Of a DNA stretch of 64,000 bases, positions 4,551-37,789 are shown in pieces; the first letter of the stretch is position 1, and each line of letters opens with the position of its first letter. The stretch is from the NCBI GenBank assembly GCA_037379345.1, contig CM074512.1:59169597-59233596 (forward strand). Direction: 5' to 3'. The stretch is from Perna viridis. Taxonomy: Eukaryota. The translations under genes and the position numbers were made by a program. Below the pieces are notes generated by a model. The model worked only from the letters and a program-made list of their open reading frames with translations, was not told the DNA's origin and searched no databases.

Positions 4551-4888
4551 TTACATATTTGTATCTCTATTATCTTCGATATCACCTACCACACCACTTT
4601 CACAACTTTCTATGCAGGAATTACTACGGTACATTGACTTAGTATGGCTTCCTTCATTTACTTTCCAACAGTCATTAGCATTGGACACTAAATAAATCAT
4701 ACACTTAGGAAGACGACTAGTTTTCACGAGGTAATAAATAGTTATTCTAATGAACATATGACTTATAAGCATAAGACATGCATAAATAAACAAAATATAA
4801 CATGTATTAAACAGAATCTGTCGTAATGTACTGACAAGGGGAACTAACTCTGAGTGAAGATAATGTATGAACAGGCCTTCATCCATTT
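4551..4888 (-). CDS. Terminal coding exon: last TM helix and cytoplasmic tail
   Basis: Acceptor cttctttttcag|AA (phase 1). Encodes EMDEGLFIHYLHSELVPLVSTLRQILFNTCYILFIYACLMLISHMFIRITIYYLV...DNRDTNM*. Confidence 0.88.
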
Positions 4889-7800
4889 CTGAAAAAGAAG
4901 TATTAAAAATTAGAACAATGTAACATGAACTAAAAAGGTCAAGATGTACAAAAATATTCATAACATGGATGTTTTTTAAATTCTCACATTCTAAAAATTA
5001 TCACAATTTGGACTTGTACATGTAATACACATTTTTTCTGTCATAAAGTGAATACTTTTTTTAAAACAGTTTCTAAAAAGTATTCAATTATTACATGCTT
5101 GAGGTGTATGGATATATTGTTAATACTGGAATATAAGAAGTGAAGAATTTCCAAACATACATGTACATGTACATCAAAAAGTCCTTTATCTGTAAGGTTT
5201 TAGTAAAAATTGCACTAAAACATGAAATGGCAGATAACCTATACATATGCTATTACCTCTAAATGGTGAGGTAGACACAGGTAGAAAGTTACATGAGGTA
5301 ACAAGTTCTTGGACCTTCAATGTAAACAATGAACAGGCACTATCATCACTGGCCAGTGTACACACTCCTACAAGTATTTTCTGTAAAACCTCATTCTGCA
5401 AAACAATTAATGTACTTATAATATATCAAACTAGTATGGAGAACATAACTTTTAACTTTGAACATAATCCACAAAATGTTTATACAAAATGTTATACACA
5501 ATTCTTTGATGAAAATTTGAGGCATATTTACAAATTTATATAAAAATTGTATGTTTGATTTAACTTCTCCTGAAATATTATTTAATCTATTCACAACAAA
5601 AACTATATTCACTGGATTTTGAATTTAAGTCTAGGTGCACTTAAATCACTACAGTATACTCGGGAAAATGTCAAAAATTTTAATAGCCTTTTCAACATTA
5701 AATCATTCAACAAATATGAACAAAAATGAACGTGCAATATAATAATACAATTTAATAAATTTGCTAAAAAAAAAAAAAAAACAAAAACCAAGACTAATAT
5801 ATTACCTGTGCAGCAACAGTATTGGTCAGGAAGCTGTTAATTGCTAACACCTCAGAATCAACAATCAATTTGTATTCTTTCAATATACTGTTAAGGTCAG
5901 AGGTCACATCAGTTAACAGTCTATTTGTGATATCAACTTGCCTATGTAACTGTGGAATGATTGATTTTGTGTCTATGAGAAATGTTGCAGTTTTTATAGA
6001 AACCAGGTCTGATGTAGCCTTAGTTACCAAACAAATGACTAATATGAAAGCACCGACTAGAACAAATCTCCATAAAATGGGGGCAATAAGATGCTTGTAA
6101 AGAAATGACAAAGCTTTCAGAGCATTTCTCAACACAGCTGAGTCTGGCTCCTTTTCATTATAAGAGCGTCTCTTTTCCTTCAGTTTCTTAGTCCAAATGT
6201 CACGTAAAATTTCTTGTTTTGACTTTTGAGCGGTGTTGGCATATAACTGAATAGGTTCATTTTTGTTATAAAACACATCATCTTTGTTCTCAGAATAAAA
6301 ATCATATGGATTTTCAAGTGAAGCATTTTCATATTTACGGTTGTTATTCCCTGTTTGCCAAAACTGAATTCTTTCTGCTACATGATCAGTTGGAACTTTT
6401 ATGTCCATTCCATTTTTAGCTTTCTTCAGAGTTTTTGACAGCCAAACAAATCTATATGAAAGCATTAAAACATCCATTGAAATGAAGAAACAAATAAATA
6501 CTGGTAAAAGAATATCTCTCATTCGGTCAATCATTTTCGCTTTTGTATCCATGCTGTCAGCTTGAGGCTCCATAAACTGCTCATTTTCAGTGTCAGAAGA
6601 ATTGGTTGGCAACCAGATTGCCTCCCCTTGTTCTAAAATCTGGAATCCAAATCTATACCCAACTGTTGGTTCCAGTTTTTCCTTTGGTAAAATTACTGAT
6701 TTTTTTGGAGAAGTTTTCATTTCATCTGGTTTCAAGCCAGACATAGAATTCTGAAGCCTGAAAAAAAAAAGAGATTATAATTTCAATACATGTAATAGTA
6801 AATTACTGTCAAACATGAAATATAACATAGAAGGAATACCTCGTCTAACCTTGTTTGGGAGACATGAATAAATTTATATAATCAGACTTGGTCTTATCAT
6901 GATTTTGAAGCTTTGTGAATTGTAAATAATGGAATATTTTCATATACAAGTACCTGTTAACAAATCAGTGAAAATTTATGACAATGAAAATGATTTATTA
7001 TAGTAATTTCTCTTCTTTTCATCGATATACTGGTTAGGTTTGAAAACAAGAACAAGGAGTATATCATTGGCTATACTAAACTTTTTTCTACCAGTAATTG
7101 AAATTACAAATGTAATTGGTTGAAATTGTTTGTATAATGTTTTATCTCCAAATAAGAAGTTATATACATATATATAATATGTTTTGTATCAATATTATAT
7201 ATTTAATAAGACAATTAAGAAGACATGGTCACAGAATTAAAATGAAGACTTTCATTAATCAATTTTTGTAATAATAAGATAATACAAAAATATTGTCCTG
7301 ATGCAAGTAAGGTTACTTGTATAGATACATATAACACACCACATACCTGTTCATTATATTATGTTTTACATTCAAAACCTCCTCCACGCCATCTATTTCC
7401 AACCACTTCATAAAATCTTTCAAGCCTTCAAATGTATGTTCGGAGTCCTCGACAACTTGTTGATCAATAAATTTATCTTTTGGAAATTTTAGCCAAGCAT
7501 TGTCTCTAAAGTTCTTTAAGAGCTCAATATAGTTCTGTTGTACATGGCTAAAGTGACCAACAAGAACTTCTGATGTTTCCTTATAGAACTTTTCTAATTT
7601 TGATGAAATCAAATTGTATTTTTCTGATAGGCTATTATTGACCACCTTGTCTAAAATTCCTTCCTTCTGGTACAGACTCAGTAATATCTTTTTAATGTCT
7701 TGTTGAACAGCATGTTTAATCTTATCAATGTTCTCTTTCATATGTTCAGAACATGCTCTCAAGCGACGAAAGGTTTGATTAAATGCAGTGTTCAGTTCAG

Positions 7801-10800
7801 TTTCTTCATACTTGTTAATTTTTGACATGTGATTTCCAACTGATTCATGAATTTTTGCACTAGTGTTAGATACTATTGTCAAGTTTCCAACAAGAGGTCC
7901 CTGAACTATGTAGAACACAGCCAGCATCATTGAAAATGTAAAGAAAATAGCATAAACTACATACAAAGTACACAAGGTACAAAATACACTTTTTGACACC
8001 GGTTTTGAAAATAAGGTCAAGGTCAAAGGTTGGTTGACATTTCTTTCATCATCCTTGGCACCAATATATGTTGTAGTGTCTGGACTGATGGTCTTTTTTA
8101 CCTCTGAACTCCTGACAGGTTTCATCCTGTAGATGACCAAAAGAGCCACAATAAATGCAGCAAATATTACACAAGTGAAAATAAAGGTGACAATAATTGG
8201 TATCCATGGATACTGGTATATGTTGCTTTTAGTTTCAGTCAGTGCATACTCTGTAGGTGGATAAAACGGGGGATGAAGAATGGACAGCAAAACATGGTGA
8301 CTGACATAAGAATCGTTAATACAGGCCACAAATACATTTGGTAGATCTGTATAAGGTGTTTTGAAGTCAAAAGTCAAATGAAAATCTTCAGGACATTTGA
8401 CAAAGATATCATATGTTCCTAATTTACTCTCCATGAATTGATCAAATACATCCACTGTGAAATATCCTGGGCAAATCTCTAGTTTTCCTGAAATAAAATT
8501 ATAACACATAGTGGAAATAGCTTATTTCATTTAAAGTTATTCCAATAAGGGTTTAACATATTTGTAATAGCCTTTCTGTTTTAAATCTACTGGTATAAGT
8601 TTTCTGAGATGATTTGCTCGAGCAAAACACAAGGATACAGATACTAAACTATTCTACAAAGTAACAAACTTTGACTTCAAAAGATATAGATAAAGGGAAA
8701 GAAAAGTATGACAAATTTTACATTTTACAGATTGTGAGTTGTTTTGTCATACAAGAGTTTAAAATATACCCTGAAGTTGGATTGTCCATTTCTCTGATTT
8801 GTAATTCCATGTAACAGTACCAGAAAGGGACCTCCCTAACACAGATGTTTTATGTATATCATCTTGGAAATATTTCAGGATGGAGGAGTTGGCTGAAATT
8901 TAAAAAAAAAATTCATATCACTTAAAAGCTTTAACTTCAGTAAATGAAAGTACACGTATAACAAATGAACAGTGTGATTTATCTGGAAATTTATGATATG
9001 ATGTATTAAGAGGAAATCAGATCTTAATGGAAAAAAAAAAAAATCATCATCTTTAGGCTATACAATTATACATCCAACTAGACCGATTTGCATACAGTTC
9101 TAAAACATGATCATGCAAACCATTTCAATACATTACTTACAGACAGACACTCTAACATAAGCTGGCACATCAGCATTAGCAGTTTGGTACTCAAATCCAG
9201 CTCCAGTTGGTGTGATGGAGGGCTCCACCTTGATTCTGGATGGTAAATACAATGGCTGAGGTGGGTAAATGGTGGAAAAATTCTTCTCTAAGCATCCACC
9301 TTTATTAAAACTTTTTGTACTGTACAACAATGGCCTTTCAACCTGAACATGAGTTGAATAAATGTTTATATCACTGTCCATAGATCTGTGTTGTCTGATG
9401 TTGAACTTCTTCCTCATGTTGAACTGGGTTGGCTGTTTAATTCCATGTATTGTATATTTAGTTGCCAACTTGTCTCTGTAATTAGTCCCCATTAAAATGA
9501 TCTCATCATTGATCTCTGGAAAGGCATTATGGGTTGTTTTGATAAATTCAGAGTGAAACTCTCCTCTCTCATTAAATGATTTGTCTCCTTTTGCAAATTT
9601 TGTCCTTTCCTTAAATGTGTATCCGATTTTAGGCATGCTAACAGTGTAGTCTATCTGGTATAAGTGTGGAGGAGCTTGGTATTTCATATGACACAGAAAT
9701 CTGTCTTCTATTGTAGAGAAAACTGGCACAATTTCAAAAATGTGCAAATCACCTGAAATATCAGAAGATTTCAATAAAAAATACTTTTCAACTGGTTTTC
9801 AAAGATACTTGAGAAGTATCAAAATAGTACCAAAAGGTTTCTGGTAACAAAATGATCTGTATTTTACCAATACTTTACTAACTATTCTGTTTCTGTTTAA
9901 ATTTGAAGAGACAACACAAAAACAAAACATAACTAGGACAAAGATAAAACTTTAGAAGGAATCTCAGTGAGTTTTTTTTTACAATATGATAAATATGATA
10001 TGAAAAATGCACAATTTGTTGACAATGATTTTATTTACAACCATCAGAATAAACAGATAGAAACAAAGTCATATTCTAATTTTGATCCCTTGATTTAGCA
10101 TTTGTTGCATCTTTCTTTATGCCTATATCAAAATCGTTCCATAGAAAAATGTAGACAGCAAATAATTCCAAAGAAATGTAAACCTCTCTTATCACCTTTA
10201 GATAGAAAGTCATTTTTCAAAACATACAATTTTGTGTCTTCCTAAGGTGATGCTATATAACCTATCAGGAAAATGTCAAAATAAACTGATTAGAGTACAC
10301 AACAAATACATCTTGGTGCAAGTATTCTTATTTGCATCAACAAAAATTAACTAAACATTGAGGGACTAATAACCCCAACAGCCTTTTGTTGCCATTTCTA
10401 AAACACTCAATTCCAAACCAAAATCACAACACATCAGACAAAGTTTTGCTGCAAAAATGCATAATTTCAATGAGCCTGTCACTTCTACATTTTTTGCCAA
10501 AGCATAACTTCCTGACAATGTACACATTATGATAATCTAACACCCCATTAAGTTTCATAAGAATTCTGCAAGTTGGTGTAGAAAAGCTGCAGACAACACA
10601 TTAAACCAAGTTTTGATGAAAAATACCTAAGTTCAACAGCCTTCATTTCTACATTTTTTTTCCAAACATAAATTCCCAAGAGTATGTATATCTCCATGTA
10701 GTTATATGGCATCCAATAAAGTTTCATGACAATGCAGCAAGCTGCTAAAAAATAGTATGAACAGACAGACTGACAGAGTTAAACCTATAAATCCCCCAAA

Positions 10801-13800
10801 CTTTGTTTACAGGGGGTATAAAAATGGTGTTTATATTTGGTTTCTATGATTTCTAATTTAAAACTTTTAGTAGCATCATTTGGTTAAATGCAGAATATGA
10901 CAAAAATGAACAATGACCTTATCTCAATTTGGCAAATTGTATGAAGTTACACCACTCCACTTACCTGTAGCACATTCCACCTGTTTTATTGGGCAGGCAT
11001 CACTGAAGGCAACCTGACAACTTTTTTCTGTGTAGCAGTTTATATCACAACACTGACCTGGATCAGGTAAATGATAATGCAGAGGGATGAACATAACTTT
11101 GGTCAACAAGTCTAACTAATCATAAATATAATTTCTGATATTCTTTAAACTTAGACCAAAATCTAAATATATTTATTTTAAAAATATAACATCAAGTTGA
11201 ATATGGTTACAATTTTGTCCACTTCACTGCGCTGGCACATTTAATTCCTTCTCATATAATTTATAAAGAAAAAAGTCAGCTTTATTATGTAAAGGTTGGC
11301 ACTTGACAACTTAGTTTAAGTAAAATACAAATTAAATGAAATATACTGGTACATCTAATAATAACTTGTAATATATATGCAATCTCTTAATCAACATTTT
11401 TATTCCTTGTATTAAAACTATAAATCTATATGTTACTAAAAAACAAACCAACCTTCGTAATTCTTACACTTAGGATACTTCAAACAGCGCTGACATGCTT
11501 CAACATTAGTCCTACAATGGTCCGAGGGGAAGGTCTGAGTGCTGATATCATCCAGTGACATACCAAATGTTTTGGTAAATAATTTGGTGCTATGTGGACA
11601 TATAATAAAATTGTTTTTAGTTGACCCAGCAAATCTATTGAGAGACTGTTGCTGAAAAAGAATAAACACTTTTCAGGTGTCATCCTGTATAAGGATATTT
11701 CTTTTTATTACTTTTCAAGGAATATCTATACATTTGCTATGACAATCAACAATATACAATAATCATGTTTCACAAATGTAGTTAAGAAAAAGAACATAGA
11801 AAATACCAATAATTCTAATATAAGTAAAATAAAGGGTTATATATTTTTATATTGATGTAAACTCCATACATCTTCAAGATAACACATGTTTAATTGTTGT
11901 ATAATGGGGGAAGCTTCTATTCAATAGGAGATATTCTTACTTTTATCTTCATACTTCAATGCAGTTGGATTCATTTAAATAGTCGCCTGAATATAGCTGA
12001 AATATTGCTGCTTGGGCATTAACCCCAACAATCAATCAATAAATCATTTAAATAGCATATATATTTCACAGAATAAAGCCCATGCCTTGTAGATTTTTTC
12101 ATATCCTGTATAGCAGAGCCTGTAAGCTGAGTGAATAAAAAGTGAATGAGGAAAAGGCTATAGGTCTGTGGACGAGATTGGATATTTCAAAGCTCTTGAA
12201 AAATTGGCAGACATTAAAAAGCTTTCTTAGCAGAATATAAACAGTATTCAAATTTACAAAAAAGTATTTTCATGTAAATTTTTGTCAAAACTAAAGCTTT
12301 AAACTAAATTTGTAGAGATTATGACTCACTTTGGATCTATCATTAGTATGAGGACATTCCTGCTCAATGGACCGATGCAGAAATATCTCACCATCTTTAA
12401 ACCAGGATGGGCATTGTGGGATACTGGGGTCATTAGAATTACATTTGACCTCTGCAGCAGCAGATGAGTGGTTTCTAATGATAAATAAAGTTATCTTGTA
12501 TTTGTCTGGTATTTGATTCCTGAAAGAAAGATAAAAACAAATATTTGTTTGATGTCAATTATCTTATTTGGTTGAAGGTTAGAATTTTCTAGCAAGCCTA
12601 TCTACTAGTTTTTTTACACACAAGTTCCAACATTTTTATCATAATGAAGATTTATACATCATGGTTTTGAAAAAAAAAAAAAAAAAATTTAATGTTTATT
12701 ACGGTAGGTTTTAGTGCATAATCAGTGATGTTAATTACAACAGAGGCAGTGATAACATATTGTGAAGTTTTGATTCAATAATAACCGGTAGATCAATTAT
12801 CAAACTGCTGAAAATGTTTGGTGAGACCTGACATATTAATGCTAAATACATTTTAAATCACACTTCTTATGGTATTTACAAGAAGGCATAAACCTCTAAA
12901 CCTCAAAAGAAATGATAAAAATAATCATCATGACTTACCTGCAAAAATCTTTCCTGATAGCCCCGTAGAAATCTTTACTACTCTGGTTTTGGAAGTTATC
13001 CTTCATTAAGAAGTCTAATTCATCCTCATGGTCCAGATCTATATACGTAGGTATCAAGTATAGATTGGACACTTGTACTTTAACATTCAGACCAGCTCGA
13101 TCAAACTGAAATGACTGGATCTGTGCATTGTTAGGAATATACATTCCCTGTTGCATTACTTTCAGTTTTCCAAGTTTTTCATGGAACACATTATCTGATG
13201 CTGTCAAACTTACATTAGAGTTATCTGAAAAGAAATAAAAAAACATTTTAAAGTACTATACATGATTTGGTTTCAATTTATATGTACAAAGTACATTGAT
13301 CCGCTTTTTGCCAATATTTTGTTGTAGTTTAAAGTGAACTTTTCCATATCTGTTCGTTTGTGATAAGTTTTCCATTTTTTTTGGTTTCTTTTTTCATGTT
13401 TTTAAAATATTTTTAGCAATAATGCAAACAATAATGAAAACCATAATACATATAAATGAAAACTGCCCATTCCAAAACAAAAGAATATTACCAGATTGTG
13501 TGATCTGCCTATTCCAATTTACACTGTTAACTGGAAATGCAGCTCCAATACAGATTGTATCTTGAGTACTGCTACATGCTGCTACTTCATAAGAGGACCC
13601 TGAACATGTAGAACATGGACGACAAATCACATCACTGTAGGCTGTACAGGCTCGTGACATGTAGTAACCTTCTTTACAGGATGTGGAACAAGCTACAAAA
13701 AATATTAAAATTAATAACAGACAGAACTATTTGTTCCATGTATCAGTAATATTCATATTCAAGTCCCCCTCATTAAATTATTTATCATCAGCTATGATTT

Positions 13801-15693
13801 TTGTAAAAGACAAGTAAATAAGTAATTCAAGTAAAACTGTTCTCGATGTGTGTTATATTTTCCCTTTAATGAAAGACCATTTCGGATGGACAAATACAGC
13901 CCTCCATTGCTTTGGTCTTTTCTTCTAATTCTTCAATTAACTGTTAGAAAAAAATTAAATTTAAGTTGTAGATGACACACAATTTGTTAATACATTTCAA
14001 CAAACCTCTGCATTTCCTGTCTGTGTAATAAAAGCCTCGCTTGCATCTACAGGTCATGTGACCTAACTCAGTATCACACAAAGCATACGTCTCACATTGA
14101 GACTTGTCCACCAGACAGGAAGTCTGTAGTAATTGTACCCTGGTCACAAGTGACATACTGCTGCTGTTAAGGGAAATAGCTGATAGCTCAGGGTTTACCG
14201 AATATGAGCGGATCTTCCCTAAAAAATTGTAAAAAGAAATGTTTAATTTACCAATGCTACCTATTTATTCATTTACATAAACAACTACATATTTATTTTA
14301 CTATAATACTGTGATTTATTTACATTACTTATTTCAATCAAAGCCTAGGTATACATGTTTATTTTGATAATCTCTGTAACAAGGAAAAAAAAAACCACAC
14401 ACAATATACCAGTAAATATACAACATTTTTCTATTGACACTTTGAATATAATGGTATGGGTTTCAGTCTCCAAAATCTGTTTCATGTCTTTATAATCTAT
14501 TTCCATGCTATGAAATAATACCTATGGATCTATAATTTATAAAATGAAGAACCTAGGTGAGCATGCTCATATACCCCAGGTGCCCACATATTGGACACAA
14601 ATCTAATGTATTACAGGGCTCTTGAATTTTAGGACTGAGTTGCTAATACAGGAAGTCTGAACCCTGCCTTCGTAGCCCTTATTATCGGGTAATTTTTTTT
14701 TTTTTTGGCAAAATGTTATTTGCAGACAAAATTGCATATTTGCATGGATGAATGGATTTCATTTATGACAATTCATTTACACTTGAAAAATTAGGGAAGT
14801 CAAGATTTATGAAAGGATTTCTACCTTTAACTTTGACATAATAAACTGCTGAATACAGTCTATGTCCCATTACTCCTACAAAATTTGTCAAATCATAATG
14901 GCAGTATTAGCATGCACACCTTAAGATACATCGTACCAAATATGGAAGGAATTTGTCAAGGGGTTTCAAGGGAGTTACGCTCACAAGGTAGTGATGATGG
15001 AGAGAAGAAAAGACAGAATGACAAACATACGGACTAGTCAAAAACATATACCCTCAGCAACTTCACTGTGTGGGAATAAAAATGACAAACTTTATCAAGG
15101 GATGTCGGTGAATACTTGGACACTGAGTAGCATATGTAGTCTGATTATCAAAAAAAACCAATTTGTCACTTAAATATTTGGTCATTTTAACACCTGTATT
15201 TGTACTATTAGCATAGGGAATTCATAGTTATGTAACAAACAAAATATCATTTATAATGAATTGAAAAACATATGCTTCCACCTTCATTTACAGTTATGTG
15301 AATTGGCTTTCACTTGTTTAATCAATCTATGATCAAATAGGCAGTGATCTTAGTTGTTCTTCAATAATTTACTGCTGTTTGCTCATCGGGTTTCTAAATT
15401 GTTTACTACTTAGGCACATTTGGGTTGTTTCACAGATTGACCTTCCCAATTCTTAGCAACTTACTTATTATTGCACCTTCTGGAAAAGCAACATTTAAAA
15501 CATGTTTCTGTCTGTAGTTTGAAAAAGCCAAGACTGATGCTATGGTAACCAGAAATGCAATTCCGATGCACCATGTTAGCTTCAGTTTGTCTTTCTGACC
15601 AATGGATGACATTCTCTGGTTAGGACAACTACACAATTCACATTTTGGTTTTGTACTTGAATTCAGATGTTGTCTGTATCTGTTCTGTAAAAC
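4551..15693 (-). CDS. Spliced gene (13 core coding exons, 1571 aa): uncharacterised multi-pass membrane protein with EGF-like and TNFR-type Cys-rich domains, a large ectodomain and a C-terminal 5-TM module
   Basis: join(15693-15465, 14218-14006, 13692-13492, 13224-12939, 12519-12330, 11651-11453, 11057-10965, 9752-9141, 8892-8770, 8487-7347, 6757-5806, 5395-5257, 4888-4551). All 12 introns are GT-AG with pyrimidine tracts, every junction is phase-compatible, and the frame stays open to TAA at 4553-4551. First in-frame Met is at 15612. Confidence 0.88.
5257..5395 (-). CDS. Coding exon: Cys-containing part of the last extracellular loop
   Basis: ttgttttgcag|AAT ... AGA G|gtaata, 139 nt, phase 0->1. 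Encodes NEVLQKILVGVCTLASDDSACSLF...SCNFLPVSTSPFR. Confidence 0.87.
5806..6757 (-). CDS. Large coding exon: two TM helices and a Tyr-rich intervening loop
   Basis: poly-T cag|G CTT ... GCA CAG|gtaata, 952 nt, phase 2->0. Matches ORF 5794-6744. TMs are ILLPVFICFFISMDVLML and LWRFVLVGAFILVICLV. Confidence 0.92.
7347..8487 (-). CDS. Large coding exon: end of ectodomain, two TM helices and a long helical loop
   Basis: tttatttcag|GA ... AAC AG|gtatgt, 1141 nt, phase 1->2. Matches ORF 7313-8509. TMs are WIPIIVTFIFTCVIFAAFIVALLVIY and VFCTLCTLYVVYAIFFTFSMMLAVFYIV. Confidence 0.92.
8770..8892 (-). CDS. Coding exon (not in the ORF track)
   Basis: aaatttcag|CC ... CAG G|gtatat, 123 nt, phase 1->1. Encodes SNSSILKYFQDDIHKTSVLGRSLSGTVTWNYKSEKWTIQLQG. 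Confidence 0.85.
9141..9752 (-). CDS. Coding exon: ectodomain, probably beta-rich
   Basis: gatatttcag|GT ... GTC T|gtaagt, 612 nt, phase 1->1. Matches ORF 9133-9774. Confidence 0.9.
10349..10823 (+). mobile_element. Helentron-associated non-autonomous element (HINE/pearl-like)
   Basis: Two ~164-bp degenerate core repeats (ttctacatttttt at 10483 and 10647), a (GACA)n microsatellite, then a ccccc...ggggg hairpin ending in gggggtataaaa. Confidence 0.65.
10965..11057 (-). CDS. Coding exon, Cys-rich
   Basis: gatccag|GT ... ACA G|gtaagt, 93 nt, phase 1->1. Encodes GQCCDINCYTEKSCQVAFSDACPIKQVECAT. Confidence 0.87.
11453..11651 (-). CDS. Coding exon, Cys-rich
   Basis: ttctttttcag|CAA ... GAA G|gttggt, 199 nt, phase 0->1. 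Encodes QQSLNRFAGSTKNNFIICPHS...HCRTNVEACQRCLKYPKCKNYE. Confidence 0.87.
11983..12043 (+). mobile_element. ~61-bp retroposon 3' end (stem-loop plus (CAAT)n tail) with a 12-bp TSD
   Basis: tcgcctgaatatagctgaaatattgctgcttgggcattaaccccaacaatcaatcaat, flanked by tcatttaaatag at 11971-11982 and 12044-12055. Confidence 0.85.
12330..12519 (-). CDS. Coding exon (not in the ORF track)
   Basis: ctttctttcag|G ... TCC AAA|gtgagt, 190 nt, phase 2->0. Encodes NQIPDKYKITLFIIRNHSSAAAEVKCNSNDPSIPQCPSWFKDGEIFLHRSIEQECPHTNDRSK. Confidence 0.87.
12939..13224 (-). CDS. Coding exon, ectodomain
   Basis: tttcttttcag|AT ... TGC AG|gtaagt, 286 nt, phase 1->2. Matches ORF 12935-13246. Confidence 0.88.
13492..13692 (-). 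CDS. Coding exon with a TNFR/NGFR-type cysteine-rich module
   Basis: ttttttgtag|CT ... TCT G|gtaata, 201 nt, phase 1->1. Encodes ACSTSCKEGYYMSRACTAYSDVICRPCSTCSGSSYEVAACSSTQDTIC, with two CxxxxDxxC motifs typical of TNFR CRDs. Confidence 0.9.
14006..14218 (-). CDS. Coding exon with an EGF-like domain
   Basis: aattttttag|GG ... AGA G|gtttgt, 213 nt, phase 1->1. Encodes CLVDKSQCETYALCDTELGHMTCRCKRGFYYTDRKC (six Cys, CxCxxGF). Confidence 0.9.
14550..15082 (+). mobile_element. HINE/pearl-like non-autonomous element
   Basis: 5' gagcatgctcatatacccc, an internal core (catgcacacct...accaaatatggaagg), a gaca/acgg microsatellite, and 3' aacatataccctc...tgtgggaataaaaa. Confidence 0.55.
15465..15693 (-). 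CDS. Coding exon with N-terminal signal peptide or signal anchor
   Basis: ttttatatttcag|GTT ... ATA A|gtaagt, 229 nt, phase 0->1. Encodes VLQNRYRQ...MSSIGQKDKLKLTWCIGIAFLVTIASVLAFSNY. Confidence 0.87.
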
Positions 15694-18245
15694 CTGAAAT
15701 ATAAAAACCACAGTTAATGAGTTGTGAAATGTATAAAAGAAACATTTCTATCATCAATGGTCTCTGGATCCCTAATAAAATATCATGTATCTTGTTCAAT
15801 TTATACCCACAGTAAGCCACAGTGTATTGTCAGATGATTTCTCCATTAAACCCATGGATATAAAGGTTAGTTACAATTTTTGTTGCAGTAACATTGTTTG
15901 GTTTTCTTTTTAAAGCCAACACTATTTTCAACTCCTTTATCTAGTTATATTTTGTGACAAAATAAAATGCATGAATACTCAAAAATAATCATTCAATGGA
16001 TTAGATTATACCAGTGCAAATTAGATAAAAGTTTTATTATTCTTTAACATGAATAATTTTTCTCAAACCTTAGAAATGAAAGTCTTATGCCTCAAATTCC
16101 TCTAAGCTTAAGCAAATACATAAAAAATGAAATCTTATATTTATTATTTATATGGCATCCATTCCATGTTTATCAAAACCTTACAAATTTTACTGCCTTT
16201 CCAGTATAAAACTTTAATGTTCGCCCTATATATATTTAATATATTTACCTAAAATTCTTCGGCTTAGATTTTATATATTTGTACTAGTAAGAATTATGTT
16301 ATGACCATTTTATAATATCACAGAAAGGAATGAAATATAAAGAATTTTAGAAATAAATGTATTCATTTTCAGGTCAAGTGATTAATTTGATTAATTTGAT
16401 TAATCAAATCATCAATGAAGCAGTTTATTTCCGGTTCTCAAATTGTGGGTAAGGTGATCATGCTAACAAAAACTATATACCCAATCACTTGGACTTAATT
16501 CAAGTAAACCCATAGTCTGAACTTCATCCCTTGCACCACTGAAATATTAATATGATAATTAATTGGAAAGAATGAATAACAAAATTATGACCACAAATGC
16601 GTGTGTGAAACTTGTTCCACATGTGAGTTAAATCTCAAAGGTTCTTGGCATGAGTGGTAATATTTTGGTTAATATTTACAACTGATTATCCTGTTTCTTA
16701 TATAGATTTTTCCATAATTTATTTTCGATATAAATTTGAAATGTTGCAAACGGCGGATTGATATTCAGGCTGTGATGTTTTGGCAGGAGAAACCATTCTA
16801 TTGCATTTTTAGAAGGAGCTGTAACTACAAGATACAATCAGAGGCTAAGAAGGGATTGCCCTTATAAAATATATGGACAGATGGTGATTCCTATATACAC
16901 CTCTACTGCAGTTTGTTTGGTATATGTAATACCTCACACAGATGACATAGTAGTACATGTTAAAATAACACACATGGGAACTAGAAAATTTATCATTTGA
17001 ACAAATTAATGAATAAAAAAATCAATCCTCAAAATGGAAGGCTCTTCAAAAGTCAATGATACATCTGCCCTCTGATAGCATTTATAGAACAATAAATCAA
17101 TACTCACAAAAATGATAGAATTACAAGTATTTAAATCATTAGATCATTGAAGTTGTCATTTAACCTGAGAAAAACAAATGAATACAATGGGTAAAGATAT
17201 GTATTACAATGATACCCTTCTCTACTCTTGCATTGTATAAATTTTCTAATCAACCTGAAAGAAACCTAACATCTTGGTGGTTAAACTAACAAAACAAAAA
17301 CAGAAAACTTCCTGGATATGACATTTTCCATTAAGAAAAACGATTTTGATGTAATCTCAACATGACATCATAAAATAGCATTTCCCTTCCCCCAAATATG
17401 TGATTGCATGTGTAATTTGTAGCCTATTCTACATTTCTATTTTAAAAAAAATCTTAATAGGTTTTTATCATTTTTAAGTAAATTTCTAGTGGTTTCTTTT
17501 TTCTTCATTTTTTTAAGACAGAATAACATGATGAATATTATCTTGTATACCCTTCATGTGTGATTGTTCATCTATTTCTATCTTTGAACATGAACTTATT
17601 CTCGTTCTCCTTTCCAGACAATGGTAGATAAGGCAGCCACACAGAGGAGAACATTTTTAGGAGACTAGAATACATTTTCCTTTAGGAGATTGATGGATGA
17701 ATATTTTCACTCATGTCTCTCCACATAATGGAGCATGACTCCTAATCCATTAGGCACTAGAACAGCATACACCAGACAAGAAAATTAGGGATGCGTCAAA
17801 CATCATTTTATTTTTAGTTCAGTAATTTCAAAACAAATGTCTTTAACACCAGTTACAAACAGACCAATGTAAAAAACAAATGTCACGTTAATGTTTTGTC
17901 AAACAAATTCCATAAAATCCCAGTTACAAAACATTAACAGAAATCTAATGTAAAATTGAATACTGACACTGCAATTTATATTCATAACTTTTACAACTTG
18001 TCAGAAAATTAAAGCTTTTAAATTGTAAAGGGTTTACTGTATGTGTAAACAAGAATAGCCTTGGGGTATCTCTTAATGGCATCCATAATATCAACCTGTT
18101 ACATTTTTTGTAGCTTCTGTAATACCCACGCTTAAAAAACTGCAATCTATCTAGTATGAATAAATATCTTGTAAAGCAGAGATTAATTTCAGGTGGTATC
18201 CTTCATCAGGTATTACAACTGATACTCAAGTGTATCATATTTTAC

Positions 18246-18435
18246 TGTAACGGGAAAGCATGATTTGACTCACAAAATTATACTCTGCCACCGAGGATCG
18301 AACCCTAGACCGCTTAGTGACAAGCCAGCAACAAACCGATTTGGCTAAAGAATTAATCCTTTAGCCAAGTCAATTAACTGGCCGTTCAAATCTCACTACC
18401 TACTATAATGCAGGTAGGCCATCCTGCCACATTAC
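18246..18435 (-). mobile_element. Short tRNA-related interspersed element with Pol III A/B-box-like motifs, an internal hairpin and imperfect inverted termini
   Basis: Minus strand reads tagccaaatcgg (A-box-like) ... cttgtcac ... ggttcgatcc (B box). Perfect 10-bp stem ttggctaaag/ctttagccaa. Ends are tgtaacgggaaagcatg / catcctgccacattac. Confidence 0.6.
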
Positions 18436-18907
18436 TTTATCTTGTAATATTGCCTAAAAAATTAACTTAATGCAAAGTAGGTATTTTTCCATTAGTGGAT
18501 GGCAATACCAATGCGAAATTTCTAAAAGTTAAAAATGACCCAGTCAGACCGACCTTTTACAATTATCAACATTTCTGTTCAATAACAAGAATTAGTAATA
18601 ATGACTATAAACAATGACATTGATGGAGCATTTATTTTCCAAAATGACACCTTATTACAGCTATTTATATGGTCTTTGATCAAGTAAATGTTAGTATCTA
18701 GTTCTATGCAGATAAACAATCCAGCAAAAACCTATCTGTTCAGCAGTTTTGATTTGTTTTCTTTGGTGGCATATCCAATTTGATTTGAAATAACATAGCA
18801 GAATATTATATAAACTGATGTAAAACTTGATATCCCTAACATATCAAACCTAACAATCCTTATCAACGTAGAACTACTTCTTACAGTTTGAATGTCTTTG
18901 TTTCATC

Positions 18908-19117
18908 AGAAATGTTCCTATCAGCCGGAATATGTTCAAAGAACTCAGAAATGTTCCTGATGGTTGGAATATATTCAAGGAACTCAGAAGTGTTCCTATC
19001 AGCCAGAATATGTTCAAGGAACTCAAAAGTGTTCCTATCAGCCAGAACAGGTTCAAGGAATTCAAAAGTGTTCCTATTAGCGAGAATATGTTCCAGGAAC
19101 TCAGAAATGTTCTTATC
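18908..19117. repeat. 39-bp minisatellite, about 5.4 copies
   Basis: Unit agaaatgttcctatcagccagaatatgttcaaggaactc. The 13-codon period accounts for the four overlapping ORFs at 18874-19153. Confidence 0.92.
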
Positions 19118-22100
19118 AACCATAATATAATGAAGGAACAATCATGTATCTAACATGTGTACAGGGAAATCTAATAAAAATTGCACAGCCCATGCAGAGG
19201 GACTACAATGTATTAAAGATAGAGTAGTTAGTACTCATTCAACTGGTACAGAAATCTGATAATTGGTAAAATATGAGACCACTAACCCAGTAATTGGTCA
19301 AATTAATCTTAACTCAAGTTGGAAGCCTACACTGTAACATAAAATAAAAAACAAGAATAATTTAACCTTAAATCAATGTCTAACAAAAAGACAAATAGAA
19401 TTGCTTTTTATTTAATTGGCAAAAATTACAGTAGACAGGAAATTGCTTTGTCAACTTGAGATAATCTTATATTTCCTTGTCCAACAATTGTCAACTTTGG
19501 TCTCAAACACTCTTTAAAATAAGAAATCAATAGAATGTTATTATTATAATTGTCAATGGAAGAGAAATGTATTAGACATTTTTGAAGCATTTCTAAAAAG
19601 CTGAGACCGATCTAATCAAGATGAACAAAGTGATGGATAGACTAATCTTCATTATCAAATACTTTATTTTTACAAGTATTCCGGCAAAAGAGAAATGTAT
19701 GACTAAGTATTACAAACAAATACTCATATTCTTTAAAAAAATGTCTGCAAAGCATAATAATTATAACATCAAAATCTCACATTTTTCATCATGAGTATGA
19801 GAGTTTCAGAGGTGGAAAATAATTCAATTCAAGAGGTTATTATAAAAACTACAATATGACTTGTTTAAATGAAGTTTATCCTAGTATTACATGTAAAAAT
19901 GTTTTGTAAAACTGTCCTATTATTGGTAGTCATATAAAGTTACCCTAGAGGGGAAGATTCGGTTTTGTATTTGTCTCATCCAATAAATCCAAATAGAAAA
20001 ATCTTTCCCGGACACCAACATGATCTTTCTTTAAGCCAAAAACCAATAAAAGTAAGATTTTCTATGACATTTATTCACTTAATGTAATTTACTATTACTT
20101 GTTACTTGATAATGTATCAAGTATATTTTACCCAATATGTATTAAGTCTATTCACCCTTAGAGATTAAAATCCCAAATACTGCAAGTTTGGTACAATATA
20201 CTAAACAATTGCATAAATATATTTAGATCACACTTAAAATAGATAAAAAAAAGTTTATAAGAGATATCGACATAAATAAGATTTTCAGTATGTTTTTTCA
20301 TAAGTTTATAAAAAATATTTACATAAATAAGATTTTCAGCATGTTTTTTATATATTCTATCTTAGAAATTCACCCTAACACTTAATTTATTCTGCACAAC
20401 AATATCAGTAATTACTTCAATACCCAATTCATTACCCAAATCATAAAAACTGAATAATCCAGTCTTGATTCACCATCCCAATACATGGTGAATGGCCATG
20501 TCCTCATAAAACTTACCAATTAGCCCTTTACCACATAGTTAATGTAAATGGCCAATAGATTTTATGTTCCCTAGTCTTTATGGCAAGCTCTCATATTATC
20601 CTCAGTACTCTTGGTTCCTTGATATAGGCAATAGAATCACATCATGTTCAATATTCCCACTATAAACTTCAGCCAGACTGGTGGTAATTTACCCAACTCA
20701 TTTCATCAAAAAACCAACGTATAGAGAGTGATTCAATGTAAGTTAATTCAAAATGTGAAAAACAAGGTTGATAAAGTCAACAAGTCTGCTTCAAAGTAAA
20801 CAGTTTATATTATCATGGATCCTCAGCTATAATCTTAAAATTAAAGAAAAAATTATAAGGCACTTTTTAAGAAAAAAAAAGTATCACTTCAAAGTACACT
20901 TAGAGCAAAAGCAGGATACACCTATAATTTATTACAGAAAAGAATCTTAAATATAAAAAAATGAGTTTGGCTATCAAGATATGAAGAGGTAATCAAACAA
21001 TTATCAGAGCACAGTTTAACCCAAGAAGACAAGGCTTGTATTGTAAATATTTCAAAATTTTCATTTACTTAAAAGCTGAGAAGTTCTATATCTATAACAG
21101 CTGAAAAACTATATGATAAATGTATTATTAAAGGGAAACCACTTGTATAAGAATGCTAAATTCCATGTAATATTAATCATAATGTCTGATAAGTACATGC
21201 ACTGGAGCTGGCATATGCAGATGGAAAGAGTTCTGAGATTGGGGACAGGCATTTCAAAATAAAAGGTGGGTTAAACCAGGTTTTAGAGCAGGCTAAACAT
21301 GGTTCATTATTTCTAGTATATTTGAACACAAATGTGCAGCATAAATTTGCCACCAGTCAAAATCAGTAAAATCAGTTATCAAAACAGTACAGAAGATATA
21401 AACAGTCAATAAATGAAAACAAACATGTTAAAACTATCATGTGAGAGAAAAGCACCATTATAGAAATATCCTTATAGTGACATGAATCGCCACTCATATA
21501 AATCTCTGTTGTAATTTTAGAATGTTAACATTTCTGAATATTTATCTTTGAATTAAAACATGCTGCAACACAATGTAGTGACCATGGGAAAGGTTTCAGT
21601 TGGAACTGCTATCATGGTTACAAAGTTCTTAAAGGCATTGCCAGGCAGAGGGTACTATACAGTTTAAGCTTATAGAGTATTGTCCTTGTAATTTATTTAT
21701 AGTTGCTGTGTTAAAGTACACAGACAATTCAATTAAGTTAATGAACTAATCTGTAAAAATAGAAAGTACAAAAACTGGGTGGCCTATAATCTGTAAATGA
21801 CTTCCACACCTTAACATAATTCTTTTTATAAACTAAATAAAAGACAGATTAGTATCAGTTTTGTAATAATACCAATGGCACTTGTTGATGTGTTCCATAA
21901 TTACCTCCCTTGATTAGATATCCATCTGTGACAATCCTTTTTTATCTCCAGAGATATAATTAAATGCAGTAATTAAACCTCATGATTTTAGGTAATTCTG
22001 TCTGGAATTACTATTATTTCCAAAAATTAGTGCCAAATGTTTTGTTTATCAATGAGAAATGGTGAAATACTTTCAATCCAATTTCATGAAACAAGGGATG

Positions 22101-22426
22101 TTATTATGCAATATCAATGAGCAAATTTTAAAGTTAAGTCTGTTTCTCACATTAAAATTATGGACTTTGTACTAAGTAATCATTTATCAGTTATTATTTT
22201 ATTTCATACTGATTAAAACATAAAAAAAAAAACAAAAAAAAACAGCAACAGATGATTTCTAAACATGCCACACCTATACCAAGAATCAAAAACCTTACTT
22301 AAAAGTACCTCATATCTTTTTTTACAGGGTCTTAAAAATTCAGGGTTCTATGATGTTGTGATATAAGAACAAAGTATTATTTGAATTTAGAATTTTTTTT
22401 GAAAAGTAGAAATCAAGCACAAATTA

Positions 22427-23771
22427 AAACAGGAGGCTCTCAAAGAGCCTGAATTGCTCACCTTGCAAACCATGCCCGATTAACTAGGTAAGTAAAGGTA
22501 TCATGCTTTGTTACCATGTATGACAAAAAATAGTCGAAAAAGAGCATATCTTGATGACTGCCATAAGTTAAGAAGAGTACCTAAGGCACTGTAAAATGTT
22601 GGAAATGCTTCAAATTGTGTTTTAAAAAAATTGAGCAGGGGTCCCCCTATGCCCTGTTATTCCACAGAGTCTGAAGGGGCATTAGCCCAGTATATATTTG
22701 ATGAACAAGAACACAAAATGAAGTTAAACCACGGCTATCCAACATTTTCATCATCACCGTTCATATCAGGGGACTATTTTACTATATAAACCAATTATCT
22801 TTGAAATCAAAGCAAGTATAAAAGTATGCCAGAAGTGGACACCTAGAACGACCTTTCATCATCACCATTCAACTTAAAACACCTAGTTTCCTAAAGAAAC
22901 AAAATATCATTCAAATCTGAGCAACTGGTGAAAATGATTTCAAAGTGACAGCCATTTCGATTATGGCTGTCAGAATATCATGTTCATGTTGTAAGTAGCT
23001 TTTATTTTTATTATTTTTCTATAGTTAAAGATAAAAATGCAAAAAAAAGCATTCTGACCCCTATATTCTATTTTTAGTAACAATGGCTATGTTTTTTGAC
23101 CCATGAAAAATTTTAAATAAATATGTAAATACAGTAAAAAAGGCAAAAAATCATTTTGAAAATTTTCGCGAAGGTCTGTCTTCTGATGGTGAACAATATT
23201 ACTCTCCATCAGAATTTTGCCAAATTCAACAGTTTTTGAGTTATTTGCAAAAAAAAAAACTGTATTTCGAACCCTATGTTCAATTTTTAGTAATAGCAGC
23301 CATATTTTTTCACCAATCAAAAATCCAAACATTCATTTTGTGCAGTACACCCTAAAAAATAGTAATATCAACTTTCATTAAATTCTCTACAGTAGATTCT
23401 GTGGAGAAGATTTTTGAAAGTAATAACAGCAAAACAGCAAAAAACATCCAAAAAGGGAAATAACTCCAATATGGGTCAACAGATTTTCAAAAAAATTTTG
23501 CAACAGAAAGACCTCATCATGCTGAACACTCACACCACCCCCACCTCAGAATTTGGTAAAACCTAACAGTTTTTGAGATATATGCAAAAATCTGCTGTCT
23601 GACCTCCATGTTCTATTTTTAGTAACGGTGGCCTTGTTTTTATAACCAATCAAAAATCCAAATGGCCATTTTGTGCAGGATACTCTAAGGAACAATCATA
23701 TGACGATTCATCCAAATCCATTCAGTAGTTTCAAAGGAGATGTTTAAAGAATCGTTAACGACAGATGACGG
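22427..23771 (+). mobile_element. Larger HINE-like element with internal core repeats
   Basis: 5' aaacaggaggctctcaaagagcctgaattgctcacc (internal hairpin aggctct/agagcct). The motif ccctatgttctatttttagtaac..gccatgttttt recurs near 23055, 23270 and 23600. Ends in an acgacagatgacgg microsatellite. Confidence 0.65.
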
Positions 23772-23957
23772 AATCCTGAGTTGATTCACCATTACATTGT
23801 AGATTCGGTCATGAGTTGGTCAGACTTTTAGAGTTAACTAATGTATCATGTAATATGTACTGTCTTAGATCTGTCAAGTAGGATATCGCTTTAATACCTA
23901 ATTTATATTACCAAGAAAATCTTTCAGACTCTTTAAATAGTTCTTATGTTAACTTAC

Positions 23958-24008
23958 CACATCTTCTGAACAAACCACTTCTTTTATCACTGCATCATTC
24001 ACTTGTTT
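23958..24008 (-). CDS. Candidate upstream 51-nt symmetric (0-0) exon of the same gene
   Basis: tttttattttgtag|AAA...GAT GTG|gtaagt. Encodes KQVNDAVIKEVVCSEDV, in frame with the exon at 15693. Confidence 0.55.
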
Positions 24009-24360
24009 CTACAAAATAAAAATTTCAAACAATAATAAAATATTCTTTAGGAAGAAAAACACGGCAACTAGAGGTTCTGACATATAACAGTCTAAAATAA
24101 TCACCTGAAAAATGATTGAGTGGTAGTAGCCAACTGCTAATAAAACTAGGCCACAAATAAAGTGGATAAATTGTAGAACACTGAGGTCTACAACCAAATA
24201 AAGTTTCAAAACATTACAATGGTGGTTTTGTAGTAGCTTATCATTAATTATTGGCCAATCACAAGCTCAGATAGCCTGTGGTCCCCACTATGTTTGATCA
24301 AACAGAATTGAAAGTAGATTTGTTTCTGAATGGTACAAGTTTATGGACAATGGAAAGTTG

Positions 24361-24724
24361 ACACAAAGTGATGGCATAAGCTTACTTGAACCTTTGGTCC
24401 AAGAGAGCTACAGAAAGGCTTTCTGTGAATATACACAAAGTGATGGCATAAGCTTACTCAAATCTTTGGTCCAAGAGAGCCACACAAAGGTTTTCTGTGA
24501 ACATACACAAAGTGATGGCATAAGCTTACTCAAATCTTTGGTCCAGGAGAGCCACAGAAAGGCTTCCTGTGAACATACACAAAGTGATGGCATAAGCTTA
24601 CTCAAATCTTTGGTCCAGGAGAGCCACAGAAAGGCTTTCTGTGAACATACACAAAGTGATGGCATAAGCTTACTCGAATCTTTGGTCCAGGAGAGCTACG
24701 GAAAGGCTTTCTGTGAACATACAC
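24361..24724 (+). repeat. 72-bp tandem repeat, 5 copies, built from a HINE-like 3' end plus a hairpin
   Basis: Units start at 24361, 24433, 24505, 24577 and 24649. Unit acacaaagtgatggcataagcttactcaaatctttggtccaggagagccacagaaaggctttctgtgaacat. Explains ORFs 24343-24891 and 24408-24665. Confidence 0.92.
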
Positions 24725-26171
24725 TCTTCATTCCTAAAACTCTCTGTCTTTCTTACATCTATATAATGTTTTACTTGATTCTCAAATTTTATTTCGTTAT
24801 TTTCAGTAATTGTCACCATAAATACAGCATTAAATATGTCAGGATTATTCCTCTTACAAGTTCAATCACCACACCCCAAAATTTTCCATAAATAGCATTG
24901 AAATTGTCAATTTGCAATCTGCAATTCAAACCAAGTTTTTTTTGCATTTAAAAACACAAAAAAGGGAATAATACAACAAAACAAAATAATCTAGGTGAAC
25001 TTTAAAGAGAGAGTGTCTCATTTATTTTTTGCTAAGATGTCAGACTGCGCAATTATAGTTAATAATGATTGATCATCAAACAATTGGCTGAAGATCTCGG
25101 TTTGGTATTCAATCTTTCAAATTTTTGTTTTATGGTCTGTGTTTGTGAATAAATTGAACAGATCTAAATCAAGGTTCTTTTATAAGATTATTTTGTGCAT
25201 TATCTATTTAGATCCTTTGTACTATGTTGTACTTTAAGATCTAACACTTATCTTCAGTGCACTTTTGGCTCTCTATTATTGCCCAAGTACTGAGATCACT
25301 TTGAAAACAATTTCATCTTTTTGAAAATTTGAAAATAATTCAAATTTCTTCGAATAAATCAAGTTTATACTACATTACACTTATGAACATGTGTTAGCAA
25401 ATATTCTGAAATGGTTTCAAAATATTCATTACTTTTGAAATGGTATTTAAAGAGGAAGAAATAATATTGCTGATATACTGCTGAGAACTCCCTAGAGATA
25501 GTTTGCCAAGTTACCACAGTATCAATATACAGATATGATATGTCAAGAGCAATCACTAAAGTCACAATACAACCTATAACAAAGAAATCTTCCCAGTTTA
25601 TATCATGGTTCTGTGATATATATATCTGGAAGTAAACTGCTTATCTATTCATAACAGCAAAAGGAAATTACAAGGAAAGACAATTAAAAAAATAGTACAA
25701 TTGTTACAGAACATGAAATGTTTCTCGATCATTTCTGAAATGTCATTGATTTCATATAACCATGCTCGAAAAACAGCCCTGATAAAGTTTTTTCAGTCTT
25801 GATATAGAATTCCCTAAAAAGATTTAAATGGCATGCAATGACTTACAACCTATACTCAAGATAGTATCTATGTAGTGCTTCAGACAAAATGAATGTACTT
25901 GTCTAGGAAAGAATATTCAAGCTTCAAAAAGATTTGTTCTATAAAGTAAAGCCAAAATTGACAATGCTATAAAAGTGTGTCCGTTTCTATAGAAGATTTC
26001 AGAATGAAAACTCTGTAAAATTGTTTGGGACCTGTTAAATTCCTAACTAACTACATCATATGACTTCAGTTTTAGAATTACACTTAGTAGGTACCTCCTT
26101 AGCATGTTGGATGGAGAGACAAATGAAGTAAAGTGGCTACTTGACCTGATTTCACTGATGATGAAACTGGT

Positions 26172-27081
26172 AACTAAAGGCTCTATAGCTCACTAACTTG
26201 GTAAGCTACATTCTAATATTTGTCAAAGCAGCAATGTTTTTTTTTTTGAATAAAAAGTCTAAACTCATACTTAAGAAACATATCAACTTTCATAGAATTC
26301 TGTCCAGTAGTTCCTATTGAAAAAAATTTCAAAAGCAATAACAAAATGTAAAAGGGTAATAACTCCAACGTGGCTCAACAGATTCACATGAAAATTGACC
26401 CAAGCAAAGATCTCACCATGCTGACCACTTTAACCCAAGTCAGAATCAGGCTAATTCTAATGATTTAGGAAATATACGTGAAAAACTGTTATTTAATTTA
26501 CCCATTCCACATCACATGACCACCCCTCTATGTAGTAAAAAAACTCACAAAACCTATGCATGGTAATTGAGAATGTGTACTATATAATTATATTTGTAAT
26601 TAACAACAAAAGTATATGAAGTTTACATGTGTGGGTAATTTGCCTCCATGCAGTAGGTTAGCAGAAAAGGTAAAAATGTTGATTTTCAGTATCATGATTA
26701 TCTATTCAGTATTCAAGTCAATTTTATGAAAAATTTCTAAAAACATACCAATTACATAATGATTTTGAGAGCCTTATTTCCAGGCTTCACAATGGTATGC
26801 AACTTTAAGATGCCATTTGTCCTGGGAATTCACAGTAAACTTCAAAAATGTTAACATGTAAAATAATGGAAACATTATTAGTAGTTAGTGAGACTGTAAG
26901 CTTACTTATCAAATGTTTCATAGAAATGGATATTTTGATGAAAACGGCCTTCCATGGTCATAATTTCAAATTCTACCATAAAATCAGAGTAGTGATATTG
27001 TTAACTATGACAACTGACAACACCACTAGATGCCAGAGGTCAAGTGATGGCAATAGCTCTTTGGGGCCAGGTGAGCTGAAA
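26172..27081 (+). mobile_element. HINE-like element related to 22427-23771
   Basis: 5' aactaaaggctctatagctcac. Segment 26352-26425 (aagggtaataactccaac..caacagatt..catgctga) matches 23453-23527. 3' end gtgatggcaatagctctttggggccaggtgagctgaaaa. Confidence 0.6.
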
Positions 27082-33000: not shown

Positions 33001-34530
33001 AATCAAAGGCACATGTACATACTTAATACTTTGCCATATAAAAGCTAAGCATTAGAAAAACAAAACTGGAAATAACATTTTGATGTGTAAATTCTTATTT
33101 TGAATCAAGTATGTGTTTTCATGTTTCTTTTGGCAGAAAGAGAATTTGGTAGCATAATTCATGAAATCCCCAGCACTCCAAGAGGTTGATTGATGAATAT
33201 AAACCTTATAATGAAATGTTTCAACCACACAATATTTGTACAAAGCATGATCATTAAGGACCAAAGAAACTTTTTCAATCAATTATAACCTGCATAGCAG
33301 AAAAATGCATATTTCAACAGAATCTGATACAGGAAGGTATTACAAATATTACAAATTTTGCAGAAGTATTCATTTTTCTGAGACTTCTGGTAAGATATGC
33401 TAAGAATAATTCATTTACTTCTTTGACAAAGTAATATGACTATTAGGAATTGTGACTGCTACAATAAAGTCAATATAACCAGTTCTCCTTGGAAAACTAA
33501 CAGCATTCTCACAAAGGACTTGATAGATAAGGGGAATTAGTATTCTGCACAGACCTGTGTACAAATATTTACTATGACCAGTAAATCAAACGCAACCTAA
33601 TTGACCATCAGCGTTAAGACAGAAACTTCCATCAAAAAGTCATTCATTCGGACAGTCTATAGTCAGTTCTTTATATAATAAATCAGTTTTGTCAGAAGTG
33701 GTCTAAATAAATGTTTCTTGCCCATTTTACTGTTGTGTAAATGGAGTTTTGCCTCACTTTGTCTGAGGGCTGCTTTTGATTATTATTGCTGTCTAATGCA
33801 TTATGATAGAAATAACTTTTTTTCAGGAATTGTTAGATTGATAAATCATTTGTACATTTTTTGCATGTATCAATACTGGTATTAATAACATGATCACTTT
33901 CAACAGAAGCCTCAACAAATTACTTCCTGAAATTAGTTTGCTACAAATCATTTTGCAATATTTCAACAGAAGCCATAAAATTTTTCCTGGAAAAGCTGAT
34001 GCTTGAAATTAACTGCAACTTAATATCCAAAGCATAACAAGAAGACATATTATTGAAACTGAGTAATTAATACTCATGTTGACATTCAACACTGACAGAT
34101 TCCAGAAAAGATTTGAGAAAAAAAATCAGTACAAACATGAATTTCCCTGTTTTTAATCCACATTTTTTGCAAAACAATTTCTGTATGGTAGTTATAGGTA
34201 TGAAACACAAAATCCAAGATGATAACCACACATTGCAGTAAAGAAACAGTGGCCAGGTGACTGTTGCTTACATGTATTTGTCATGGTTAGATTTACAAGG
34301 TATGGTAGTCACCACTGAAGTTTCCATATAAAGGATTGATAGCCGTCTATCAGACACTGATCTAGTAAGATTAATTGTACCACTTGGTTTGGTTTTATTG
34401 CTTCACACATCAGAAAACTATGCTCTGTAAATAAAAACCCAGCAGGGTAAGAAGGTAGGCATGTAAATGTACTTTAAGAAGATGACTGCTAACTTAAGTT
34501 TGAAGGAATCCCCTTTCAAGTTAAGTGTTA

Positions 34531-34731
34531 CTGAGAAGGTACTTTAATTTGTGGATACCAATTTTTGTGGATCAGGAAAGAAACACAAGTTCGTGGGGCT
34601 CTTGAATTCCTGAAGTTTACAGTATACCCATCAACAGGAATCTCTTATTCGTTGGCAACAAAATTTCATGGTTTAGTCTACCAACAAAAACCACGAAAAT
34701 TAGTACCCCACGAACAACAGTACTTTCACAG
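34531..34731. mobile_element. MITE with TA target-site duplication (Tc1/mariner-type termini)
   Basis: ta|ctgagaaggtact...agtactttcacag|ta, TIR 11/13 identical, with internal gtgg / ccacgaa subterminal repeats. Confidence 0.75.
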
Positions 34732-37711: not shown

Positions 37712-37789
37712 GGGGATTACAAGATATCTCCACTCGAGATAGTTAATAAAAAAATTAACTATCAGGAGTGGAGATATCGTGTAATCCTC
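37712..37789. repeat. Long near-perfect palindrome (~36-bp arms), probably the core of a non-autonomous DNA element
   Basis: ggggattacaagatatctccactcgagatagttaat-aaaaaa-attaactatcaggagtggagatatcgtgtaatcctc. Confidence 0.8.

Follow-up and report, generated by a model that had tools for sequence, protein, structure and literature searches.

What kind of protein is encoded by the gene that occupies 4551..58692 on the minus strand of a 64,000-nucleotide stretch of the Perna viridis genome (GCA_037379345.1, contig CM074512.1, positions 59,169,597 to 59,233,596; the window in what follows)? The first-pass annotation had noticed, towards the 3′ end, a module of five transmembrane (TM) segments and had suggested from its topology a remote member of the prominin, Tweety (TTYH) or DC-STAMP families. 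The anatomy so described is right; the family assignment is unsupported. The whole protein is spliced and has ~1,800 residues and seven hydrophobic segments, the five-TM stretch being its C-terminal membrane module, and sequence comparison has it conserved from cnidarians to molluscs. Structural models predict a class II fusion (fusexin) fold for its ectodomain, in the architecture EGF-TNFR-DI-DII-DIII (DI to DIII, domains I to III). Because of this predicted fold, the preferred explanation is a cell-surface membrane fusogen, or a part of one, with the module likely serving as anchor and companion stalk, a proposal that stands about an even chance of being right.

The region on which this reading rests lies directly ahead of the first TM segment of the module:

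8869..13213, minus strand: predicted class II domains I-II, on exons 13224-8770
12368-11603, minus strand: variable loop between two conserved Cys, in domains I-II
11585-10983, minus strand: Cys-rich helical insertion in domains I-II
8275..8854, minus strand: predicted seven-stranded Ig-like domain III, immediately before TM1

In the predicted model of an orthologue, a beta-rich DI, an elongated DII and an Ig-like DIII follow one another co-linearly, without a rigid fit of the whole chain; the seven strands of DIII span residues 638-725, and a short stem leads to TM1 ~20 residues on. The top Foldseek matches of this ectodomain model are viral class II glycoproteins (hantavirus Gc, alphavirus E1, flavivirus E), and EFF-1 (4OJD, 4OJE) is matched at E 4.7e-8. 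All 46 of 46 rows are class II proteins, residues 174-726 are covered co-linearly, and a structural match restricted to DI-DII gives an rmsd of 4.8. The order DI-DII-DIII, with DIII beside the membrane, is kept in every clade of the family. Within DIII, C661 and C687 are conserved and the strand-F Cys is not; the C306-C330 loop, a candidate DII tip, varies in length and has 2-7 large hydrophobic residues when its flanking strands are counted in.

The module itself shows five Kyte-Doolittle (KD) peaks of 2.1-3.0 over the last four exons (8487-7347, 6757-5806, 5395-5257 and 4888-4551), in the order that had been claimed and with a topology borne out across the family:

8141..8197, minus strand: TM1, out to in, preceded by a Trp in 24/26 rows
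7904..7960, minus strand: TM2, running on into a predicted ~90-residue helix; conserved Y 32/34, F 26/34 and F 29/34 rows
6514..7903, minus strand: ecto-loop 1 (loop 2-3, 267 aa), with sequons, a predicted long amphipathic helical hairpin and a disordered end
6457..6513, minus strand: TM3, D-x-L-L-L-x-Y-R, with Asp 35/35, Arg 35/35 and a downstream Gly 35/35
6022..6078, minus strand: TM4, from the hydrophobicity peak and the topology across the family
4818..6021, minus strand: ecto-loop 2 (loop 4-5, 143 aa), a predicted 70-residue helix, a Cys-linked extended return and a helix into TM5
4761..4817, minus strand: TM5, then the cytosolic tail to the stop at 4551

The four loops measure 47, 267, 125 and 143 aa, so that the earlier estimates of ~45, ~250 and ~125 aa hold, while the tail has 65 aa, with a different TM5 border, instead of ~55. 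The sequons NLT, NTS, NQT and NNS are all found in loop 2-3, as had been stated, and the three Cys in loop 4-5 are conserved in 29/29, 20/29 and 29/29 rows; ecto-loop 1 has an invariant Cys (34/34) and the invariant Trp of an N-x-W motif (35/35). The module model (769 residues, pTM 0.57; 22/104 rows were removed before folding from an alignment that contained misaligned fragments) predicts helices at 101-189, 194-259 and 290-305 in ecto-loop 1. The proposed amphipathicity of the ecto-loop helices exceeds chance in loop 2-3 (z 4.1, 0/500 shuffles as high), and the loop 4-5 helix reaches z 2.8 (6/500 shuffles). Over 26 family members, loop 2-3 has 1.56 sequons per 100 aa and loop 4-5 has 0.77, compared with 0.40 for loop 1-2, 0.51 for loop 3-4 and 0.08 for the tail; K/R counts are 1.2 after TM2 and 0.65 after TM4, against 3.1-3.5 after TM1, TM3 and TM5. 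These densities and flanks support an N-out orientation, in which loops 2-3 and 4-5 would be extracellular and the other two loops, like the tail, cytosolic.

Upstream of the fusexin-like region lie two further hydrophobic segments and two extracellular domains:

58021..58077, minus strand: TM0a, after a small N-terminal ectodomain; KD peak 1.9, the same peak in P0002, P0004, P0058, P0115 and P0132
15523..15579, minus strand: TM0b, KD peak 2.3, ending V-L-A
14006..14114, minus strand: EGF-like domain, Pfam EGF_3 in 13/27 members
13546..13690, minus strand: TNFR cysteine-rich repeat, Pfam TNFR_c6 in 21/27 members

The full-length orthologues P0002 and P0004 give the complete layout, namely signal peptide, small ectodomain, TM0a, cytosolic region, TM0b, EGF, TNFR, a beta-rich region of ~570 aa and then TM1-5. 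Pfam was run on four exons of the window, on 7 orthologues and on two sets of 27 sequences (long homologues and alignment members), and EGF and TNFR were the only domains to pass curated cut-offs; a sequence search of the PDB with the full-length profile likewise matched EGF/TNFR proteins. TM0b is likely an internal signal sequence. Signal-peptidase sites follow the (-3,-1) rule, and viral glycoprotein precursors are cut by this enzyme at internal signal sequences. A V/A-x-A/S ending, a motif picked post hoc, occurs at TM0b in 11/16 members, compared with 1/34 at TM2 and 1/34 at TM4, and suggests a cut that would free the EGF end.

That all these parts belong to one chain follows from the gene structure, in which 17 coding exons form a single open frame of 1704 aa, with GT-AG introns throughout and the sole stop at the frame end:

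58692-58546, 58104-57984, 43900-43821, 24008-23958, 15693-15465, 14218-14006, minus strand: exons 1-6 in the window
13692-13492, 13224-12939, 12519-12330, 11651-11453, 11057-10965, 9752-9141, minus strand: exons 7-12 in the window
8892-8770, 8487-7347, 6757-5806, 5395-5257, 4888-4551, minus strand: exons 13-17 in the window

Over 1719 columns, the product shares 59% identity with P0002. Among contig runs from five studies, three of the four module junctions appear as spliced joints (CT..AC in the contigs) in 3/3 RNA-like sets, no run being on record as RNA; the same three are absent from the DNA-like run X15, and the fourth, 5395/5806, is seen as consecutive contig pieces. Joints of the upstream exons occur in contigs of 4/4 runs. 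The 5′ end lies beyond the window, the next upstream exon being at G000:C2:59,252,509-59,252,352 (~19 kb past it); a signal-peptide exon was sought upstream and not found. The 5′ introns are long, ~8, 20 (24008-43821) and 14 kb (43900-57984), plus ~24 kb across the window end, and the remaining ones are each <1.3 kb. Intronic open frames resembling tandem repeats, with repeated peptide units, lie at 18840-19153, 24298-24891 and 61524-62076. An element of ~190 bp, whose 24-bp terminal inverted repeats differ by 2 mismatches, sits 3′ of the stop at 4304-4496; to judge from a contig depth of >80,000 in the DNA-like run, it may be a high-copy MITE, and it likely falls within the 3′ UTR, since RNA-like contigs extend to ~2853-3015.

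Word-based searches returned bivalve orthologues (7 and 6 matches), and a module profile search 144 representatives at E<=0.001. The 20 looked up include the molluscs Haliotis, Patella, Nucella, Bulinus, Plakobranchus, Batillaria and Sinanodonta as well as Owenia, Tubulanus, Lingula, Nematostella and Sanderia, and all are annotated as uncharacterized, hypothetical or without a name. Titles, openings of abstracts and passages of the literature yielded no description of the family, a scope that leaves out subscription papers and supplements. In a maximum-likelihood tree of 23 long members, the window gene falls in clade A, beside a clade B and a clade of two cnidarians and three further rows. 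Perna viridis has its own clade B paralog at G000:C2:59,257,700-59,298,928 on the plus strand (loci L029-L033), head-to-head with the window gene, its first coding exon ~5.2 kb from the most upstream clade A exon found; it comprises a signal-peptide-like exon, EGF/TNFR, ectodomain and five-TM exons. It surfaced only with a clade B query, a search of the genome with one window-gene exon returning the gene itself alone. In Sinanodonta and in Tubulanus, A and B members lie on scaffolds of equal length. The cnidarian-type members P0045, P0048, P0050, P0054 and P0058 have an extended ecto-loop 1 with 1-3 furin-like R-x-K/R-R sites; such sites are absent from the module of bivalve clade A members.

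How does this protein compare with established fusogens? Passages of PMC8784728 and PMC9259645 name HAP2, EFF-1/AFF-1 and archaeal Fsx1 as cellular class II proteins, and all of these are fusogens. HAP2/GCS1 (Arabidopsis 5OW3, Chlamydomonas 6DBS) has, according to passages of PMC9259645, a disulfide between DIII strands C and F and one C-terminal TM; the window protein lacks both, having five TM segments with two large ecto-loops, EGF, TNFR and two extra TM segments in front, and it is without the PF10699 signature. A separate HAP2 gene is present, with two exons above the Pfam cut-off for HAP2-GCS1 at G000:C2:7,019,433-7,022,574 on the minus strand (L017-L018), and the ectodomain profile matched open reading frames (ORFs) of its exons only at E>=0.17. 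EFF-1/AFF-1 has no strongly hydrophobic tip, and the candidate tip of the window protein is not clearly hydrophobic either; the window protein differs in being polytopic, in its other domain additions and in giving no EFF-AFF Pfam match. An EFF-AFF search of the Perna viridis genome came back blank, its control being silent too. Archaeal Fusexin1 (7P4L) demonstrates, as passages of PMC9259645 have it, that multi-pass fusexins exist, with three TM segments and a domain IV but no helical ecto-stalk module. An internal signal sequence ahead of the ectodomain is a possible feature in common with the viral class II glycoproteins, whereas the window protein comes from an intron-rich host gene found across cnidarians and lophotrochozoans; of 77 pattern matches in viral contigs 0 were confirmed, in a search sensitive to close relatives only. 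On the models, the window protein is likely a new polytopic form of fusexin, from an overlooked family of animal cell-fusion proteins.

Two other accounts concern the ectodomain. The class II match could be an artefact of an elongated beta-rich model with an Ig domain, given low TM-scores, high rmsd, a VIA Z inside the range reached by unrelated folds and a shallow alignment (27 rows); the uniform specificity of the matches, their co-linear coverage and the DI-DII match make this very improbable. Alternatively, the fold was kept and fusion lost, leaving an adhesion or signalling receptor whose EGF/TNFR domains bind a ligand and whose module signals or acts as a transporter or channel. The tip loops, variable and of no clear hydrophobicity, weigh for such a receptor, although passages of PMC8784728 describe EFF-1 as fusing membranes without a hydrophobic loop; the large Cys-rich insertion in DII, the long cytosolic regions, the invariant polar Asp and Arg of TM3 and the retention of a separate HAP2 point the same way. 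Set against the persistence of all three domains in order in every clade, and the fusogenic nature of the cellular class II proteins named above, this account appears rather unlikely, if by no means negligible.

The module has its own candidate relatives, prominin, Tweety and DC-STAMP, and Pfam, hhalign and fold searches detected homology to none of the three. Pfam gave no match to PF05478, PF04906 or PF07782 in the module; none of 88 Foldseek matches at E<=10 reached E<=0.001, and TTYH is absent from the module fold matches listed (TTYH2/3 being present in the PDB copy, where sequence searches turned up no prominin or DC-STAMP chain). The best structural Z, 7.4, is to small helical bundles, and module profiles returned only apolipoprotein-type noise from PDB sequences. 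That the module is a remote prominin or Tweety, bending membrane or moving lipid, is favoured by the shared N-out order of five TM segments with two helical ecto-loops and by ESM Atlas feature matches of 0.89 (cluster 14% Prominin) and 0.87 (cluster 26% Tweety), both below the 0.9 lead threshold; the distant homologue P0054 gave no usable named match there and did not repeat the lead. Profile comparison by hhalign with 19 mollusc prominins stayed at 0.16-0.24%, below a reversed control of 1.2%. Passages of PMC11405016 give prominins intracellular loops of <25 aa and extracellular loops of >300 aa, whereas the module has 47 and 125 aa inside and unequal loops of 267 and 143 aa outside. No conserved Trp (compare W795 of human PROM1) stands near TM5 among columns conserved in >=55% of 36 rows, and elsewhere in the genome there are a TTYH gene and prominin genes, the latter at three loci. 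This kinship is accordingly very doubtful.

The module might also be very remotely related to DCST/DC-STAMP and have become fused to a fusexin; such an origin would be compatible with the fusogen and would join the two known animal fusion systems in one chain. In its favour are the large size of the first ecto-loop and the invariant Cys in the middle of its helix, a long cytosolic loop, a second ecto-loop ending C-x-x-x-P and, judged by eye, a likeness to DC-STAMP exons of the genome. DCST1/DCST2, DC-STAMP and OC-STAMP are, like the window protein, multi-pass with a predicted helical stalk and a head-to-head paralog pair; DCST1/2 are described in passages as an interacting head-to-head pair with 5-6 TM segments (PMC8989947) and a predicted stalk-like ectodomain (PMC13192892). 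Yet hhalign probabilities, from shallow profiles (Neff 1.6-1.8), were 0.08 for the C-half and 0.6 for the N-half (0.12-0.97 in 12 shuffles), of 852 ORFs from the DC-STAMP loci the one that matched best was antisense, and the module tail has no conserved Cys and hence none of the C-terminal non-canonical RING with six invariant Cys that passages of PMC8989947 ascribe to the family. This descent is unlikely. The genome has five DC-STAMP-domain genes in two clusters, at G000:C8 0.68-0.72 Mb and 2.03-2.04 Mb (L001-L005, L035-L039); one has a long Thr-rich repeat frame, and three have basic KKRKRR-type sites and an N-terminal stretch before the first TM which we take to be SH3-like. The earlier guess of a link to membrane fusion gains support, from the predicted class II fold of the ectodomain ahead of the module rather than from any kinship of the module.

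If the fusogen reading holds, and the case for a part in membrane fusion is evenly balanced, signal peptidase would cut after TM0b and free the EGF end, and EGF/TNFR would provide recognition by binding a partner or receptor. TM1 would anchor the class II rod via DIII, and the helical stalk formed by loops 2-3 and 4-5 would stand alongside the rod. Viral fusion proteins are held before triggering by companions such as E2, Gn and prM; the stalk might play this part from within the same chain, keeping the protein in its prefusion state. Triggering would then lead to trimer formation and fold-back of DIII, drawing two membranes together. A heterodimer with the clade B paralog is suggested only, by the head-to-head gene arrangement and the analogy to DCST1/2.

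Passages of PMC8784728 raise the question whether divergent fusexins have been overlooked in animals. A possible, still tentative answer is a third cellular fusexin family in cnidarians and lophotrochozoans, separate from both HAP2 and EFF/AFF; its precursor would be processed in the manner of a viral polyprotein and would combine an EGF-TNFR-class II fusogen with its own five-TM helical stalk, in a heterodimer from a head-to-head gene pair. Were the stalk a remote DCST relative as well, HAP2-type and DCST-type fusion would be joined in one chain. The family also bears on the movement of fusexins between viruses and cells and on whether DCST-type stalks originated as fusexin partners; if it does not fuse membranes, it would be a class II fold turned to another use. 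Extending from sea anemones to oysters, unseen by Pfam and of a new polytopic design, it is a candidate for unexplained gamete or somatic fusions in these animals.
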